A stretch of 10,993 bases of DNA from an uncultured Deinococcales bacterium (GTDB lineage Bacteria; Deinococcota; Deinococci; Deinococcales; JAAFIG01): assembly GCA_964244895.1 (NCBI GenBank), contig CAXTKV010000178.1, forward strand, positions 1 to 10,993, written 5' to 3'. The notes under the pieces were generated by a model that was not told the origin of the DNA, did not search any database, and was given only the letters and a program-made list of their open reading frames with translations. Position 1 is the first letter of the stretch; each line of letters starts with the position of its first letter. Positions 2,098 through 10,993 of this stretch are shown piece after piece. A program made the translations under genes and the position numbers.

Positions 2098-2145
2098 GAA
2101 TACCGTCCAGCGCGCGCTATCAAATATGCGTGCGGGACGGTGTTC
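2098..2145. repeat. REP-like palindrome, copy A
   Basis: GAATACCGTCCAGCGCGC-N12-GCGTGCGGGACGGTGTTC; same family as 4453-4506. Confidence 0.75.
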
Positions 2146-2272
2146 GTGAACTAGGTGCGATCCAGGATGGGCAGGCTCGAGGTGCGCGAAGCCGAGCGGA
2201 GATAAAGTCGTGTTTTGTGACCGAACGAGCTATTGGTGCAGGATTATTCCCGCCCTGCGCAGCGAGTTTCCT

Positions 2273-2278
2273 TAGACT
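2273..2278 (+). promoter_or_regulatory. -10 element of a putative leaderless promoter (GGDEF gene)
   Basis: TAGACT 7 nt upstream of ATG2286, with no Shine-Dalgarno. Confidence 0.55.
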
Positions 2279-2285
2279 TGAGCCA

Positions 2286-3410
2286 ATGCGTGCAAGTACG
2301 GAATTCAAAGCATTGGTTCTCGACGACAGCGTGCCCGAAGATCGGCGGCGGCGCGTGTACCTGACGGCCTCGTTCCTGGGGCTTTCGAGCATGGCGGCGT
2401 TCTGGTTTTTGCGTCAGGGCGTGGATGTCTACGTGCGTTGGGCCTACCCGTTTTTTATGGTGAACGGCCTGATCTGCGCGGTCATGCTGGCCAACCGGAA
2501 CGTGCGCGTGCGGGTTTCGGAACGCTATACGCTGGCGGTGTTCGTGCTGATCGTGCTTTCCAAGTTCGTGTACGAGGTCTACGCCAAGACTCCGGTGCAG
2601 GTCTCGAGCGCGGAACTGACCGAAAGCGTGTACTGGCTGGCGTGCATCGTGGTCTTGATGATTTACATGGTGCTGGAAACGCGCAAGGGCTTGATATCGG
2701 CGCTGTTGCTGGTGGCAGCAATGGCGAGCATCGGCTTGCCCGGACTCATCTCGGAGGCGCTTTCGGGCGACGGAAGCCGCCTGATCGGTTTTGCGCGCTT
2801 CCTGACCTTCATGGTGGGCGTGGTGCCGTTCGTGTACGTCATTTCCAGCGTCAAGGAGCGGTTGGCGATCGAACGCTGGCACTCGAGCACGGATGTGCTG
2901 ACAGGCGCGGCCAACCGGCGCAAACTCCTGGACGTGATCCAGTCGGTGCAGCAGGGTTGCTCGGTGATTTTGTTTGACCTGGATCATTTCAAAGCGATCA
3001 ACGACACCTTCGGGCACGAGGTCGGCGATGCCGTGCTGCGCGAGGTCGCGGCGATTTCGAGCGATGTCTTGCGTTCTGGTCACGGTGACACGATCGGGCG
3101 TTGGGGCGGCGAGGAATTCCTGGTGGTGCTGCCGGGCGTGATGCTCCCGCAGGCGCTCGAGGTGGCGGAACGCCTGCGGTACAGCCTGGCGGCGCACGCC
3201 TTCGGGGCGGTCGGACAGGTCACGGCCAGTTTCGGCGTGGCGTGTTCGGTTGAACCCGGCGCGATGCTCGAGCTGATCCGGCACGCCGACGACGCGATGT
3301 ACCGCGCGAAGCAGTCCGGGCGCAATCGGGTGGTTGGGGATCAGCACGTGCTGGTCGGTGGTGCGGGGGTTCAGCCGTCAGTTCTCGAGCAGAGTTCAGC
3401 GCAAGTGTGA
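2286..3410 (+). CDS. Membrane-bound diguanylate cyclase (GGDEF domain)
   Basis: Several N-terminal hydrophobic helices, then TDVLTGAANRR, DLDHFKAINDTFGHEVGD, GRWGGEEF, ADDAMYRAKQSGRNRV. Start placed at ATG2286 rather than 2130 because the ORF-track start overlaps repeat A and a -10 box precedes 2286. Confidence 0.92.
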   Translation: MRASTEFKALVLDDSVPEDRRRRVYLTASFLGLSSMAAFWFLRQGVDVYVRWAYPFFMVNGLICAVMLANRNVRVRVSERYTLAVFVLIVLSKFVYEVYAKTPVQVSSAELTESVYWLACIVVLMIYMVLETRKGLISALLLVAAMASIGLPGLISEALSGDGSRLIGFARFLTFMVGVVPFVYVISSVKERLAIERWHSSTDVLTGAANRRKLLDVIQSVQQGCSVILFDLDHFKAINDTFGHEVGDAVLREVAAISSDVLRSGHGDTIGRWGGEEFLVVLPGVMLPQALEVAERLRYSLAAHAFGAVGQVTASFGVACSVEPGAMLELIRHADDAMYRAKQSGRNRVVGDQHVLVGGAGVQPSVLEQSSAQV

Positions 3411-3494: not shown

Positions 3495-4439
3495 ATGATG
3501 GCAGAACGACAAGATCTGTTCCGATACGTCGTCGAAGAATTCGCAGAAGATTACCGGGAAGGCGAGATCGACCGCCGGGAATTCCTGAGGCGCTTGACGC
3601 TGTTGGGTGGCGGCATCGCGGGTGCGACCGCGCTGCTCGAGTCGGTCGGTGTGGCGGCGGCCAGCAACGAGGAATGGCAGCAGGCGTTCGCGGCCATCCC
3701 GCAGCGTCAGGCGTCCTTCAAGGCGCAGCAAGTTGACCCGGCAGACCCGGCCATCAGTGCGCAACCGATCACCTACCAGGCGCGCGGTTTCGAGAATTAC
3801 GCGTACCTGGCGCGACCGGCGCAGGCGACCGGGAACCTTCCGGGCGTGCTGGTGATTCACGAAAACCGGGGTTTGCAGCCGCACATTCAGGACGTGGCGC
3901 GGCGCGCAGCCAAGGCGGGCTACGTGGCGTTGGCGGTGGATCTGATGTCCAAGCAGGGCGGCACGGCCAAATTCACCGATCAGGCGCAAATCTCGACCAT
4001 CCTGGCGCAGACCTCGGGCGACGAGCACGAGGCGAACCTGCTGGAAGCCCTGAAAGTCCTGAAGGCCACGGCGGGCGTGGACGCGACCAAACTGGGCGCG
4101 GTCGGCTTCTGCTTCGGCGGCGGTCTGACGTGGCGCCTGGCGACGGCAGCGCCGGACTTGAAGGCCGCCGTGCCGTTCTACGGGCCATCGCCCGACCTGG
4201 CGAACGTCCCGAAGATCAAGGCCGCCATGTTGGGCATTTACGGCGGTCTGGACGCGCGCATCGACGCGGGCATCCCGGCCCTGGAGGAAGCCTTGAAGAA
4301 GGCGGGCGTCAAATACCAGATCAAGATTTACGAGGGCGCGAACCACGCGTTCCACAACGACACCGGCGCGAATTACAAAGAGGACGCCGCCAAGGACGCC
4401 TGGGCGATGACGCTGGCGTGGTGGAAGGCGAACCTCTAG
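3495..4439 (+). CDS. Dienelactone hydrolase family protein (YghX-like) with a twin-arginine-like N-terminal motif
   Basis: VLVIHENRGL, nucleophile motif GFCFGG, AAVPFYG, HAFHND; N-terminal DRREFLRR plus a hydrophobic stretch; RBS AAGGGGG at 3483-3489. Confidence 0.9.
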   Translation: MMAERQDLFRYVVEEFAEDYREGEIDRREFLRRLTLLGGGIAGATALLESVGVAAASNEEWQQAFAAIPQRQASFKAQQVDPADPAISAQPITYQARGFENYAYLARPAQATGNLPGVLVIHENRGLQPHIQDVARRAAKAGYVALAVDLMSKQGGTAKFTDQAQISTILAQTSGDEHEANLLEALKVLKATAGVDATKLGAVGFCFGGGLTWRLATAAPDLKAAVPFYGPSPDLANVPKIKAAMLGIYGGLDARIDAGIPALEEALKKAGVKYQIKIYEGANHAFHNDTGANYKEDAAKDAWAMTLAWWKANL

Positions 4440-4452
4440 AACCGGATTTCCT

Positions 4453-4506
4453 CGAGAACACCGTGCTGGACGCAATATCATTCTCGCGTCCAGCACGGTG
4501 TTCTCG
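4453..4506. repeat. REP-like palindrome, copy B (perfect 21-bp inverted repeat, 12-nt spacer)
   Basis: CGAGAACACCGTGCTGGACGC-aatatcattctc-GCGTCCAGCACGGTGTTCTCG. Confidence 0.9.
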
Positions 4507-4753
4507 TGCAGCTCGTAGCGAGTCGTCTTTGGAATAGTCGGCGCACCTTCAGACGATGCGAGCGATTCTCTCGCCCTGCGCGACGATTCCGAAAATCGCG
4601 CAGAGACAATTACACTTCGGGTACGGTTTGCGCGTGACACGGCGTCCGCGTGCGGCAGCTGGAGCAGGCGTGCGTTTTTCGACGGTGGTTTGGCTGCACC
4701 GGGCGTAATTTCACGTCATGAACGACGGCGCACACTGGCGACGACTCGGCAGA

Positions 4754-6598
4754 ATGCCGCGGTTCGCGCTGATGCTTTCACTGATCGTGTCCGTGGGCTG
4801 TCAGATGCCGCCCACGACTCAACCTGCGCCACCTCAACCACCCGCTGCGCCGCAGCCGCCCCAACCTCAGCCGCCCGCGCCGTCTTCGACCCGGTACGTC
4901 GCCACGGACGGATTGGACGCGAATCCGGGAACGCTCGAGAAGCCGTACCGCACGATCCAGAAATGCGCCTCGAGCGCGAAGGCCCTCGAGGTTTGCGCGA
5001 TCCGCGCCGGAACATACCGCGAGACGGTCAAGCCGAACGCCGGCGTGCGCTTCGAGCCCTACCAGCGCGAGATCGTCACGGTCGATGGCAGCGACCCCGT
5101 CGGCGGCTGGACGCTCCACGCGGGCAGCATCTACCAGGCGCGCGTGAGCCTCGAGCCGTCGCTGCCCGGCAACCAGGTCTTCGTCGGTCAGGACGCGATG
5201 CAGGAGGCGCGCGGGCCCAATATGGACGCCGATCCGTCCCGTCCGACGTGGGCCGCGATGGGCACCGGAACGACGTACACGACGGTCTACGACCCGAACC
5301 TACCCGACCTCGACTGGACGGGTGCGACGCTTCAGATGTGGTCGGGGTCGAACCCGTTCGCGCACCAGACGGCCACGGTCGCGTCGAGTTCAGTCGGGCG
5401 GGTCGCCACGGATTTCACCAACACGGGAGTCTGCCCGTCGCTGTGCGCCGTACCGGGCGGGCGCTACGCGCTGGTGGGGAAACTCGCGGCGCTCGATCGC
5501 CCGACGGAATGGTTCTACGACACCGGCGCAAAAATCCTGTACTTGTGGGCGCCGGGCGGTGCGAACCCGAACGCGCTCAAGGTTTACGCCAAGGCGCGCC
5601 AGTACGCCTTCGACCTGCGCGGTGCGTCCGGCGTGACGATCCGCGACATCCGCATCTTCGCCAGCACCGTGATCACCGACAATCGCTCGAGCGGCATCGT
5701 GTTGGACGGGTTAGATGCGCGCTACGCGTCCGCCTACAGCACCTTGCCCAGACCGAAGCCGAACGATCTGGCGTACTCGGAGGGTGATTTCGACGTGGTC
5801 GCCTCTCGGGCGCTCGAGAGCGGCATCGTGATCGAGGGCAGCACCAACACGATCGAGAACAGCACCATCCGGTACTCCGCCGGGAACGGCATCCTGGTGC
5901 GGGGCAGCGGTCACACGGTCACGAACAACCTGATTTCGGGTGCGGGTTTGATGGGCAGTTACGCGACGGGCATCAACGTCTCCGGGACGAACCAGAAAAT
6001 CACCAGGAACACCGTCTTCGACACCGGGCGCGATGGCATCACCGTCGACTGGCACCTGAACGGTTTGCAGTTCAAAAACAACGAGATCGCGTACAACAAC
6101 GTTTACAACGCGTCGTTGCAGGCGGTCGATTCGGGCGGTATCTACGCCTGTTGCCGATTGGATGCGGCGGGCACGAGCATTCACCACAACTGGGTTCACG
6201 ACATTCCCTTCGGGAAGGTGGGGCGATCGAAACCGGCGGGCATCTATCTGGACAACGGTTCGGGTTCGTTCGAGGTCTACCAGAACGCGATCTGGCGGAT
6301 CGAGGGTCACGGCATCCTGCTCCATGGGGACAGCATGCCGAGCCGCAACAACGTCATCCGCAACAACACCGTCCTGGGGCAGTCGGATGCCAGCATTTAC
6401 CTGCTCGCGATTTCCGACGCCGAGGGAACCAGGGTCTTCGACAACGCCGTCTCGAACGACATCGTGACGCAGAGCGTCGCGGCGAACGCGTTCACGAACA
6501 ACAACAAGCCCACCGCGCCCGGTGCGACGGACACGAATCCAGGCTCGGCGGGCTGCGCGTTTTCGGGCTGCGAGAGCGCGCAACCTCCACCGAGGTAG
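4754..6598 (+). CDS. Exported (lipo)protein with right-handed parallel beta-helix repeats (pectin-lyase fold, DUF1565-like N-terminus)
   Basis: Signal MPRFALMLSLIVSVGC, a Pro/Gln-rich linker, YVATDGLDANPGTLEKPYRTIQ motif, and Asn-ladder repeats (NTIENSTI, HTVTNNLI, IAYNNVY, DSGGIY, IHHNWVHD, GIYLDNGS). Alternative start at 4718. Confidence 0.85.
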   Translation: MPRFALMLSLIVSVGCQMPPTTQPAPPQPPAAPQPPQPQPPAPSSTRYVATDGLDANPGTLEKPYRTIQKCASSAKALEVCAIRAGTYRETVKPNAGVRFEPYQREIVTVDGSDPVGGWTLHAGSIYQARVSLEPSLPGNQVFVGQDAMQEARGPNMDADPSRPTWAAMGTGTTYTTVYDPNLPDLDWTGATLQMWSGSNPFAHQTATVASSSVGRVATDFTNTGVCPSLCAVPGGRYALVGKLAALDRPTEWFYDTGAKILYLWAPGGANPNALKVYAKARQYAFDLRGASGVTIRDIRIFASTVITDNRSSGIVLDGLDARYASAYSTLPRPKPNDLAYSEGDFDVVASRALESGIVIEGSTNTIENSTIRYSAGNGILVRGSGHTVTNNLISGAGLMGSYATGINVSGTNQKITRNTVFDTGRDGITVDWHLNGLQFKNNEIAYNNVYNASLQAVDSGGIYACCRLDAAGTSIHHNWVHDIPFGKVGRSKPAGIYLDNGSGSFEVYQNAIWRIEGHGILLHGDSMPSRNNVIRNNTVLGQSDASIYLLAISDAEGTRVFDNAVSNDIVTQSVAANAFTNNNKPTAPGATDTNPGSAGCAFSGCESAQPPPR

Positions 6599-6627: not shown

Positions 6628-6681
6628 CGAGAACACCGTCTGGCACGCACCATTCAACTCGCGTCCTGGGCGGTGTTCTCG
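6628..6681. repeat. REP-like palindrome, copy C
   Basis: CGAGAACACCGTCTGGCACGC-accattcaactc-GCGTCCTGGGCGGTGTTCTCG, 12-nt spacer. Confidence 0.85.
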
Positions 6682-8605: not shown

Positions 8606-8662
8606 AGGCCGTGCTGGACAAGGTTTTCTCGAGATGAAGGAACACCGTGCAGGACGGTGTTC
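8605..8662. repeat. REP-like palindrome, copy E (left arm plus collapsed hairpin), between convergent genes
   Basis: AAGGCCGTGCTGGAC at 8605-8619, then GAACACCGT-GCAGG-ACGGTGTTC at 8640-8662. Confidence 0.75.
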
Positions 8663-8669
8663 TAAGAGG

Positions 8670-9596
8670 TTACGAACCCGAGGTATCAGCCTTCAACGCC
8701 GCGAAATGCTTGCCCCAGTGCGGTTTTGAACCGTCCAGATCGGTGAAATCGTAGAACTCCGATAAACCCCAGCTCGAGAGCGCCCGACCCGCGAAGCGTT
8801 CGACATCCGGGTCTGCGGCCAGCGCGGCCACGGCCCGACCGATGTAATGCGGCGTCTCTGAGGCGATGAAATTGGGGTCGCGCAGCGCGCCGTCCTTCCA
8901 GTTCGATTCGGTCACGCCGAAGTATTCGAGCATCTCCTCGGAGCGCAAGAATCCGGGCGTGAGCGCTGCCACCGTGATCCGTGCGCTGGTTTTCTCGGGT
9001 GCGACCGGATCGTGCGTCAGCGTGCCGCCCGCGAAGTCTGCGGCCATGCCCTTCGCCAGCCGGATCACGCCGTTCTTGATGAAGTCGTAGATCAGGTTGC
9101 CACGGTAGGAATCGTTGTCCCCGTCGGTGATCTCGAGGATCAAGCCCCGGCCCGACCGGATCATCAGCGGTGCCGCGTACTTGCTGGTGATGATGTGCGA
9201 GTGGATGGATCGTTCCATCAGCGCCCAGGCTCGCGGCAACTCCAGTTCCCAGAACGGCTTGCCCCATTCGACCAGTTTCTCGCCGCCCCAGATATCGTTC
9301 ACGAGAATATCGAGTCTTTCCTGCTCGCGCTCGACCTGCTCAAACAGCGCGCACACCTCGAGTTCCTGGGTGTGATCCACCCGAATCGGGACGCCGATGC
9401 CGCCAGCTCGCGTGACCAACTCGGCGGTCTCGTCGATCGTCTCCGGGCGGTTCAGGTCGGACGCCTGGGCTCGAGTGCTGCGCCCCGTGCAGATCACGGT
9501 CGCGCCCGCCGCGCCCAGTTCTACCGCGATGCCGCGCCCCGCACCGCGCGTCGCACCCGCCACCAGAGCCACCTTGCCCGAGAGGGGTTTCGTCAT
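8670..9596 (-). CDS. Short-chain dehydrogenase/reductase (SDR)
   Basis: Rossmann motif GATRGAGRGIA, LDILVNDIWGG, YxxxK (YDFIK), LTPGFLRSE, SETPHYIGRAVAALAADP. Confidence 0.92.
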   Translation of the reverse strand: MTKPLSGKVALVAGATRGAGRGIAVELGAAGATVICTGRSTRAQASDLNRPETIDETAELVTRAGGIGVPIRVDHTQELEVCALFEQVEREQERLDILVNDIWGGEKLVEWGKPFWELELPRAWALMERSIHSHIITSKYAAPLMIRSGRGLILEITDGDNDSYRGNLIYDFIKNGVIRLAKGMAADFAGGTLTHDPVAPEKTSARITVAALTPGFLRSEEMLEYFGVTESNWKDGALRDPNFIASETPHYIGRAVAALAADPDVERFAGRALSSWGLSEFYDFTDLDGSKPHWGKHFAALKADTSGS

Positions 9597-9672: not shown

Positions 9673-9984
9673 ATGAATCGCGTCCTGGCTGGCACCCTTC
9701 TGGAATTTCCCGAAGGCGCACAGAAATCCATCGAGTTTCACGACGAGTACGTGCTGGTCTTGCGTTCACCGTCCGGCTTCTGGGCCATCGAGGATCGCTG
9801 CTCGCACGACGACAACGAGTTGCTCGGCGGCCTGGTCGTCGGCAAGACCATCAAGTGCGTTCGCCACGGCGCGACCTTCGATCTCGAGTCGGGCGCCGCC
9901 CTGTCCATGCCCGCCGTTCGCGGCGTGAAATCGTACCGCGTGTTGATCGAGGACGATCTGGTCTGGGTGGAAACGAAAGACTGA
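9673..9984 (+). CDS. Rieske [2Fe-2S] ferredoxin (non-heme iron oxygenase ferredoxin type)
   Basis: C-x-H (CSH) and C-x-x-H (CVRH) ligand motifs, HGATFDLESG, 103 aa. Confidence 0.92.
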   Translation: MNRVLAGTLLEFPEGAQKSIEFHDEYVLVLRSPSGFWAIEDRCSHDDNELLGGLVVGKTIKCVRHGATFDLESGAALSMPAVRGVKSYRVLIEDDLVWVETKD

Positions 9985-10071
9985 GAGCGGGTTTCTCGAG
10001 CCTCGAGGAGTGCGAGTAGGTCGGAGGTCAAAGAGGTTGAAGGGTAAAAGGTGAAAGGAAAGACAGACGGC

Positions 10072-10091
10072 GCCCTGCGAGAAGGGTTTTT
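10072..10091 (+). terminator. Putative intrinsic terminator after the Rieske gene
   Basis: GCCCT-GCGAGA-AGGGT followed by TTTT, inside a larger purine/pyrimidine inverted repeat. Confidence 0.45.
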
Positions 10092-10110: not shown

Positions 10111-10167
10111 CAGCCGTCCCACACGCTGTTTTCTCGAGGGTCGAATCTCGCGTGCTGGACGGTGTTC
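10111..10167. repeat. REP-like palindrome, copy F
   Basis: CAGCCGTCCCACACGC-N23-GCGTGCTGGACGGTGTTC. Confidence 0.7.
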
Positions 10168-10263: not shown

Positions 10264-10380
10264 GGAACGGCGGCAGACGAACGCAGCGGTCGGGGTTCAT
10301 TCGTGTTTGGCCGATACGACGCCCCGCTGGCGCACACAGGTTTCCTGGTGTCGCGTACCGCGAACGCGAGTCCATGTTCC
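10264..10380 (+). ncRNA. Candidate structured small RNA, Y-RNA-like
   Basis: The 5' end GGAACG..GAC-GAA-CGC can pair with the 3' end GCG-A-GTC..TGTTCC. Contains GACGAACG (GNCGAANG) and two internal hairpins. TAGAGT -10-like box at 10250-10255. Ends one base before the first tRNA. Confidence 0.4.
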
Positions 10381-10381
10381 A

Positions 10382-10455
10382 GGACGCGTAGCTCACTGGT
10401 AGAGCGCTCGAGATGGCTCGAGAGGACGACGGTTCGATTCCGTTCGCGCCCACCA
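10382..10455 (+). tRNA. Atypical tRNA or pseudo-tRNA, Ala(GGC)-like, with a non-canonical 6-nt anticodon loop
   Basis: Acceptor GGACGCG/CGCGCCC (A3-C70 mismatch), D arm GCTC-ACTGGTA-GAGC, anticodon arm CTCGA-GATGGC-TCGAG, T arm GACGG-TTCGATT-CCGTT, then A73 and CCA. Confidence 0.75.
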
Positions 10456-10540
10456 CAGGATTGGCGGATTGGTAACCGCTACTGACTTGAAATCAGTCGG
10501 GCGAAAGCCCATGCAGGTTCGATTCCTGCATCCTGACCCA
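10455..10540 (+). tRNA. tRNA-Ser(TGA), atypical acceptor end
   Basis: Acceptor (A)CAGGAT/ATCCTG(A), D arm GCGG-ATTGGTAA-CCGC, anticodon arm ACTGA-CTTGAAA-TCAGT (TGA at 10488-10490), long variable arm GGGC-GAAA-GCCC, T arm GCAGG-TTCGATT-CCTGC, then C73 and CCA. Confidence 0.85.
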
Positions 10541-10541
10541 C

Positions 10542-10614
10542 CTGGTTTTAGCTCAGAGGTTAGAGCAACCGACTTGTACTCGGTGAGTCCTGGGTTCAAC
10601 TCCCAGAAACCGCA
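10542..10614 (+). tRNA. tRNA-Thr(TGT), degenerate acceptor stem, no encoded CCA
   Basis: Acceptor CTGGTTT/AAACCGC (C1-C72 mismatch, U2-G71), D arm GCTC-AGAGGTTA-GAGC, anticodon arm ACCGA-CTTGTAC-TCGGT (TGT at 10575-10577), T arm CTGGG-TTCAACT-CCCAG, A73 then TCA. Confidence 0.8.
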
Positions 10615-10649
10615 TCAGCGTAAACACATACGTTGAAATCCTTGCACCA

Positions 10650-10905
10650 CGCGACGGTTGCCTCGAGCGCGAATCGTATCCGGATCGGGTTCGCCCGCGA
10701 AGGATTCGGCTCGCACCGCGCCCGAAGCCCGGACGTGACGTTCCGCCCCGCTCCTCGTCCTCGAGTCACGTTAGGCCTCTATCGCCCTCAACAGCGTGCG
10801 GCCCTGCGGCACATCCCGGATGTCGGCGGAAAGGCTCGGGTTCGCCCGAGTCCGGCGCAACCCACGGCCCACCTCGGGAACGGCAGTCTCGAGGCAACCA
10901 ACGCG
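10650..10905 (+). ncRNA. Candidate large structured ncRNA (unrecognised family)
   Basis: Closing stem GGTTGCCTCGAG (10656-10667)/CTCGAGGCAACC (10888-10899), extended by CGCG/CGCG. Two CGGG-TTCG-CCCG hairpins and several nested stems. No credible ORF. Confidence 0.5.
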
Positions 10906-10987
10906 CCCTTTTGCATCAATCGCGCCCGGCGTCGCTCTTGAGTTGCCCGTCCCAGTCGCAATCACCAACGCTGAATGAAGGAGAGCC

Positions 10988-10993
10988 ATGTTC
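10988..10993 (+). CDS. Start of a downstream CDS (truncated by the window)
   Basis: Strong SD AAGGAG (10978-10983) followed by ATG TTC. Confidence 0.5.

Follow-up and report, generated by a model that had tools for sequence, protein, structure and literature searches.

Positions 10650–10905 of the window, the whole 10,993-nt contig C178 analysed here, are a real, conserved non-coding RNA domain whose fold differs from the one that an earlier note had proposed. The domain forms the 3′ part of a ~620-nt run of tRNA-shaped modules ahead of a probable slipin gene, slipin being what we take, from the annotation of alr0740, to be the family name. We classify the locus as the Deinococcales form of a predicted accessory module of RNA repair, Band-7/b7a-tRNA, from which it differs in having no RtcB gene alongside. 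The domain is likely an RNA handle bound by the slipin under translational stress, a reading to which we give a probability of about 0.5.

Organization of the locus

On the plus strand, element 0 is followed by three tRNA mimics, a hairpin, the structured domain and a start codon near the contig end. Contigs C6, C53, C76, C151 and C278, cited below, are other contigs of the 5.1-Mb source genome. The features of the window are:

649–2043, upstream neighbour, SufD-type protein
2130–3410, upstream neighbour, GGDEF protein
3495–4439, upstream neighbour, dienelactone hydrolase
4718–6598, upstream neighbour, beta-helix protein
8670–9596, upstream neighbour, short-chain dehydrogenase
9673–9984, upstream neighbour, Rieske ferredoxin
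10281–10364, plus strand, element 0, a T-arm-like structured element (profile match)
10382–10455, plus strand, tRNA mimic 1, with a 6-nt anticodon loop (ARAGORN possible pseudogene; Rfam tRNA, 52 bits)
10455–10540, plus strand, tRNA mimic 2, with a long variable arm and a 1-72 mismatch (ARAGORN, Rfam tRNA)
10542–10614, plus strand, tRNA mimic 3, with a 1-72 mismatch (ARAGORN, Rfam tRNA)
10615–10636, plus strand, small hairpin after mimic 3, containing TACGTT (−8.7 kcal/mol)
10650–10668, plus strand, P1 5′ strand, CGCG and the 12-bp helix (pair probability 0.99–1.00)
10669–10714, plus strand, P2, variable hairpin closing on the first UUCG loop (predicted fold)
10715–10883, plus strand, single junction A (10715), then P3 (10716–10883), a long rod with interruptions (minimum-energy fold)
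10833–10852, plus strand, side hairpin with the second UUCG loop, on the 3′ strand of the rod (P 0.93)
10886–10912, plus strand, P1 3′ strand, then a 4-U run (predicted fold)
10978–10993, plus strand, Shine-Dalgarno sequence and two opening codons of a gene, probably long-form Band-7/SPFH (slipin), cut off at the contig edge (sequence, synteny)

The mimics lie head to tail (10382–10614), with their arms in normal rather than permuted order, and score 49–59 bits against the Rfam tRNA model. The anticodon of mimic 2 varies between relatives, and a second Ser(TGA) gene is present on C6; in relatives, that of mimic 3 is tgt, tct, cgt, tga or tag, and C53 carries a second Thr(TGT) gene. The mimics carry annotation as ordinary tRNAs, which is a warning for annotation. 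Resemblance to tRNA belongs to them, and the 10650–10905 domain itself is not tRNA-like. BLAST searches against phages and plasmids gave matches confined to the tRNA-like part.

Variants of the mimics are seen 5′ of slipin at other loci. At L038 and L064 (G012) and at L039 and L050 (G004), hairpins of ~20–35 nt are inserted in the anticodon loops, which we take as further evidence that the mimics would not decode. At L066 (G197), L068 (G181) and L069 (G198), the tRNA arms are permuted or broken in order, with the T arm preceding the D arm in L066; the same DNA, as L051, has a weak YrlA score (23 bits). Such arm orders hint at possible intermediates between b7a-tRNA and YrlA.

Element 0 is the best match in the 5.1-Mb genome of a profile built from 10 other loci with the window excluded, although a weak one (E 0.059), and the profile matches 28 of 74 loci with the seed loci counted in. 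It replaced a strict pattern that had matched 11 of 75 loci, several of them falsely. Just ahead of element 0 we found no short leader open reading frame (ORF); the sole ORFs below 40 aa start at 10010 and 10037. A terminator-like site (10072–10087) lies after the Rieske ferredoxin gene, and positions 1–500 of the window are low in G+C (0.44). A REP-like palindromic repeat at 10149–10167 recurs near 2113–2130, 4471–4488, 6646–6663, 7402 and 8647–8655. The 19-nt match of 10149–10167 to the region upstream of rtcB, considered as a shared operator, was rejected as a dispersed repeat, its 16-nt core having 430 exact copies in the genome.

A 183-nt RNA-run contig spanning 10276–10458 gives a weak hint of transcription; it stops before the domain, and no RNA-run contig lies over the domain. 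Run X6 likewise has none there, although contigs are no proof of absence. No promoter-like site was found between the mimics and the gene.

Distribution of the layout

In relatives, the same modules are followed by a structured spacer and then by a PF01145 gene of 504–517 aa. A slipin-type protein is found in 14 of 19 genomes of the family and in 7 of 201 genomes of the phylum. All 15 Deinococcota slipin loci with upstream DNA carry tRNA-like modules with varying anticodons, L066 having T-arm motifs only. We also analysed 81 metagenome and viral loci, comprising the best 80 of 534 confirmed metagenome loci and the single slipin locus, with 168 nt upstream, that a scan of viral contigs returned. 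Of these 81 loci (the best 80 of 534 plus 1 viral), 62 carry tRNA-like modules or T-arm motifs ahead of the gene, and the spacer after the modules is usually 230–600 nt. Among the remaining 19, 13 have less than 360 nt upstream and 5 hold partial genes. The layout of modules, structured RNA and Band-7 gene is common to relatives and distant bacteria.

For comparison of the spacers we used 78 sequences, namely the window, 15 from Deinococcota and 62 from metagenome loci (from the best 80 of 534), near-duplicates included. At the position of the hairpin at 10615–10636, a hairpin of −3 kcal/mol or better is predicted in 75 of the 78 loci, a count made with no shuffle control. The TACGTT that the earlier note had offered as a −10 box sits in the 3′ strand of this hairpin, and a TAnnnT word occurs there in 4 of 78 loci; a promoter at TACGTT finds no support.

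Predicted fold of the domain

The minimum-energy fold comprises a closing stem (P1), a hairpin (P2), a single A and an interrupted rod. The second UUCG hairpin is a side branch on the rod, and the predicted folds of L069 and L070 have side branches too. This fold retains part of what the earlier note described. Every string that it named is present where it had placed it, and in the ensemble both its 12-bp stem (10656–10667/10888–10899) with CGCG/CGCG and its twin UUCG hairpins persist (P 0.93–1.00). The other helices that it proposed, TCCGG/CCGGA, TTCGG/CCGAA, ACGTGAC/GTCACGT (10733–10739/10765–10771) and ACATC/GATGT, are missing from the ensemble. Two of its helices, at 10729–10733 and 10733–10739, overlap by one base. 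Enforcing all of its helices together carries a penalty of 19.6 kcal/mol relative to the minimum-energy fold, and four of them, each enforced alone, cost 4–8 kcal/mol.

The stem–hairpin–rod architecture is predicted in 45 of the 78 spacers, compared with 8.8% of shuffles and 55 of 449 random 330-nt windows of the source genome; in the other 33 spacers it is not seen in the minimum-energy fold. Across the 45 architecture-positive loci, P2 measures 20–87 nt and the rod 111–238 nt. Seventeen of the 45, including the window, have the junction pentamer CACCG, which none of the 449 genome windows shows. Together with internal-loop motifs, the pentamer is conserved within clusters and partly between them. 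A run of at least four U follows the closing stem in 17 of the 45 loci; 28 are without it, a few of their tails having been cut short. P1 shows a C-G to T-A change against genus g4, and the closing stems of genus g5, L069 and L070 have different sequences. All six copies in g4 (for example, L032:8140–8199) carry an extra ~60-nt hairpin between an outer 4-bp helix and the closing stem.

A 92% relative, present in two runs of one study (X2 and X4), was compared position by position. It differs by five small indels that shift every overlapping frame, from which we conclude that the region is non-coding; no ORF overlapping the domain has a Pfam match. P2 holds most of the changes in X2. Those in the rod mostly retain or add pairs in X2 and X4: the change at 10771 converts G-U to G-C, those at 10817 and 10754 can add pairs, those at 10792 and 10871 fall in loops, and 10830–10831 are unpaired. 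Against the rod, a change at 10717 (X2 only) disrupts the middle of the 3-bp helix 10716–18/10881–83, and both partners of the pair 10734–10866 are changed to a mismatch. In the closing stem, changes at 10899 and 10892 (X1) give G-U pairs, 10900 gains a pair and 10902 loses one. The side hairpin (10833–10852) is two pairs shorter in X2 and X4. The same comparison bears on the earlier proposals. The ACGTGAC/GTCACGT stem has two of its seven pairs broken (10734, 10771), and the suggested pseudoknot 10741–10747/10825–10831 loses two of seven (10830–10831) while their partners are unchanged.

Taken by themselves, the motifs of the earlier note are near chance level, and it is their context that makes the element real. 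Perfect helices of at least 7 bp occur in 97.5% of shuffles, and the region holds 4 compared with a shuffle mean of 4.07. A perfect helix of at least 12 bp is found in 2% of 200 shuffles, and the source genome contains 260 perfect inverted repeats of at least 12 bp with 150–300-nt spacers (51 per Mb). The palindrome CTCGAG, which makes up half of the 12-bp stem, has 21,883 sites in the genome against 1,720 expected from base composition (~13-fold over-represented). CTCGAG is frequent also in loci of the same family and within RNA stems. The domain folds more stably than shuffles (z −2.70 on the plus strand and −2.90 on the minus strand), but 37% of the 449 genome windows are at least as stable; because both strands give similar z, thermodynamics alone cannot choose the strand. 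Many dispersed copies, which that note had named as the mark of a miniature transposable element (MITE), were not found: the domain is single-copy, and its other matches in the genome are at most 35 nt (E ≥ 0.02).

Covariation and family membership

In two distant clusters of spacers, both sides have changed in 23 of 44 pairs (19 sequences) and in 31 of 58 pairs (15 sequences). None of 500 shuffles reaches the observed level, and slid partners pair in 33–49% of cases compared with 93–95%; these controls flatter the folds, because the alignments tested also supplied the structures, and the sequences are related to one another. The shape recurs in genera g5 and g4, where 9 of 56 and 1 of 79 pairs, respectively, have changed on both sides. 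The covariation comes from clusters other than that of the window. The covariance model R1, built on the rod of cluster A, recovers the held-out loci L076, L079, L080 and L131 and, weakly, L125, L134 and L135; with filters on or off, it gives no match over the domain of the window, and none over any Deinococcota spacer. Four sequence profiles of other clusters likewise have no match in the window, and the profiles do not cross clusters. The best z among 77 pairwise comparisons was 4.4, with alignments out of register, and plain alignment with Deinococcota or L070 spacers was rejected for the same fault. The window nevertheless shares with the junction-and-rod RNA of cluster A its position, three-way architecture and CACCG junction. 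As model scores are not significant, family membership rests on position, architecture, junction and closing-stem changes.

The domain is absent from Rfam. In agreement with the earlier note, which did not recognize RNase P, tmRNA, SRP, 6S or a known riboswitch, Rfam gives no match over it (E up to 1), whether to these, to the T-box or to a known ribozyme, and none over the equivalent spacers of 22 other loci. What that note had suggested, a novel ncRNA or a leader or partner RNA for the gene at 10988, holds in so far as the domain is non-coding and bound up with this gene, but not as a stand-alone ncRNA.

The slipin gene and its product

In relatives, the position of the ATG at 10988 starts the PF01145 gene. 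Its only match in the source genome is C278:50–1402, which is without the first 58 residues, and we infer that the gene beginning at 10988 continues there. Codons 3–58 are not in the assembly, and C278 opens with 55 bases unrelated to the gene, so the slipin gene may be interrupted or misassembled here. These bases (C278:1–55) are single-copy and contain in-frame stops and a 10-mer repeated twice; they may represent either the end of a transposon or an artefact of assembly. Across loci, the distance from the RNA to the start codon ranges from ~20 to ~290 nt and the Shine-Dalgarno sequence lies outside the fold, which argues against occlusion of the ribosome site.

In the predicted model of the full protein of a relative (pLDDT 84.9), five beta-rich N-terminal repeats are followed by an SPFH domain and then a long helix; no long helix precedes the SPFH domain. 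In structure comparisons, the whole model best matches stomatin, prohibitin, HflK and erlin (Z 15–16.7). Taken separately, the repeats come closest to the N-terminal subdomain of HflK, erlin and prohibitin (Z 5.3–5.6 over 44–46 residues). Foldseek gave poor matches throughout for these repeats, with the major vault protein (MVP) at rank 41 (E 0.068). Slipin proteins fall into two size classes, ~380 aa and ~510 aa, apparently two N-terminal repeats apart, and the long class occurs together with element 0.

Proposed function

We favour a function in which RNA and protein are partners. One stress-induced transcript would carry the mimics, the domain and the slipin mRNA, and tRNA-processing nucleases may free the domain or trim the unit. 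The slipin would assemble into a ring or cage, as other SPFH proteins do, and bind the rod. The particle would display tRNA shapes that do not decode and so act as a decoy for tRNA nucleases; alternatively, it may give RtcB-type repair a platform, much as Y RNA does for Ro60, with RtcB acting in trans in the source organism. We prefer this reading because the RNA and the gene are in fixed pairing, with variable spacing to an unsequestered start site, and because the protein model best matches the ring- or cage-forming stomatin, prohibitin and HflK. Further grounds come from passages of the papers cited below, namely the prediction that Band-7 and Rsr exchange partners, the proposal on YrlA and a nuclease, and the co-regulation in Anabaena.

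The RNA always lies immediately 5′ of slipin, on the strand of the gene, which would also suit a cis-regulatory leader that controls slipin, for example through autoregulation by slipin binding or a conditional terminator after the mimics. The U run in 17 of 45 loci and the lack of a promoter-like site between mimics and gene point the same way. We hold such a leader to be a genuine possibility if not a probable one, given that the spacing to the start codon varies, the Shine-Dalgarno sequence is unsequestered, the U run is missing in 28 of 45 loci (a few tails cut short), and covariation favours one fold. Quite unlikely, in our estimate, is a passive structural end, in which a stable fold would guide processing and keep exonucleases off the mimic transcript or the slipin mRNA, with the mimics as the sole active parts. 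The wide variation in sequence, P2 length and rod length fits this reading, as does the failure of sequence profiles across clusters, but a plain hairpin would suffice for such a role, whereas conservation extends, within clusters and in part between them, to the junction pentamer and internal-loop motifs.

The genome is rich in CTCGAG and REP-like repeats, and the folding energy of the domain is ordinary for it, which would be expected of a mobile or repeat-derived element (a MITE or REP derivative) or of a chance fold of GC-rich, CTCGAG-rich DNA. This reading is largely refuted, and we consider it very improbable: the domain is single-copy, its place before slipin is fixed across genera and distant bacteria, and the closing stems are unrelated in sequence between loci. 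To a self-cleaving ribozyme or ligand-binding riboswitch built on the proposed pseudoknot we assign next to no weight. Its 7-nt complementarity exists, but most shuffles contain perfect helices of at least this length, two of its pairs are lost in X2 and X4, and Rfam has no match.

Beyond the partnership of slipin and RNA, we tentatively raise a broader idea, which we regard as unlikely. A widespread bacterial RNP cage may exist in which a vault-like slipin is assembled on the ~620-nt RNA, the rod acting as protein-binding spine and the mimics trapping tRNA-cutting toxins or recruiting repair enzymes, with no need for a linked RtcB. SPFH proteins are known as membrane scaffolds. In the conserved, covarying RNA domain fixed ahead of slipin, an SPFH protein gains a candidate ligand, and the statement that SPFH cages bind RNA becomes testable in bacteria. 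The predicted b7a-tRNA is at the same time enlarged from one tRNA-like gene to a multi-domain RNA. To our knowledge, the function of the vault particle is a long-open question.

Relationship to known systems

The pairing of Band-7 with b7a-tRNA had itself already been predicted by Burroughs and Aravind in 2016, as relayed in bioRxiv 10.1101/312249. As far as that account describes the module, our locus resembles it in having tRNA-like RNA genes directly 5′ of a Band-7 gene and in the linkage of RtcB or RtcR to part of the homologous loci. It differs in its three mimics, T-arm element and 256-nt junction-and-rod domain, where the account gives one tRNA-like RNA, in its ~510-aa protein with five N-terminal repeats compared with ~380 aa, and in its unlinked RtcB. 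The Band-7 partner is established by synteny in the relatives; in the source genome, we infer it across the contig break. RtcB lies within 18 and RtcR within 5 of the 81 loci (the best 80 of 534 metagenome loci plus 1 viral), and neither was found in the 12 Deinococcota stretches searched. The rtcB of the source genome is on C76, unlinked to the slipin locus, and because RtcB is not adjacent the locus is filed as a variant of the module. In cluster B (L129, L134, L137, L143 and L147), an HNH endonuclease gene lies just 5′ of the mimic, and RtcB usually follows slipin. In the literature we found no account of a structured RNA ahead of slipin; the 2016 prediction and its supplements may describe more.

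In Anabaena, according to passages of PMC10272220, rtcB, the slipin operon alr0739–0740 and a trn array have TrcR as a common repressor and increase in translational stress. The likeness is that slipin, rtcB and the tRNA array lie apart there, and the source genome has all three, unlinked. The difference is that these passages of PMC10272220 mention no RNA ahead of slipin; no shared operator was found among the source-genome parts. The array on C151 (8015–11898, L040) is dense, with at least 24 tRNA genes on the minus strand, and resembles the trn operon of Anabaena. At several distant loci, slipin lies where such an array ends.

Bacterial Y RNAs (YrlA, YrlB and Deinococcus Yrn1), which act with Rsr/Ro60, are alike, in the parts of bioRxiv 10.1101/312249 and PMC7790460 on which we draw, in being structured RNAs with an end-joining stem and tRNA-shaped modules, encoded ahead of a partner protein in RNA-repair settings. 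Interchange of b7a-tRNA and YrlA between Band-7 and Rsr is reported there as a prediction (bioRxiv 10.1101/312249), and the tRNA-like YrlA has been proposed as a possible inhibitor of an anticodon nuclease (PMC7790460). Unlike these RNAs as so described, the window has no YrlA match in Rfam and its mimics are in normal order. Matches to YrlA in the relatives are sub-threshold and lie over tRNA-like parts (Rfam), and no TROVE (PF05731) gene was found in the source genome, which is 91% complete.

The vault, composed of MVP and vault RNA, resembles the slipin in the protein layout of N-terminal beta repeats, SPFH domain and long helix, as set out in parts of bioRxiv 10.1101/872010 and 10.1101/2023.11.10.566534. 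Whole-length alignments with MVP reach Z 11–12 at an rmsd of 6–12, in one case Z 11.6 over 267 residues at an rmsd of 6.8. Stomatin-type proteins score higher (Z 15–16.7), the repeats alone do not single out MVP, and vault RNAs measure 88–140 nt in the same sources. The likeness to the vault is a matter of layout. If the broader idea is true, the RNP cage would be a bacterial counterpart of vault and Ro60 particles.
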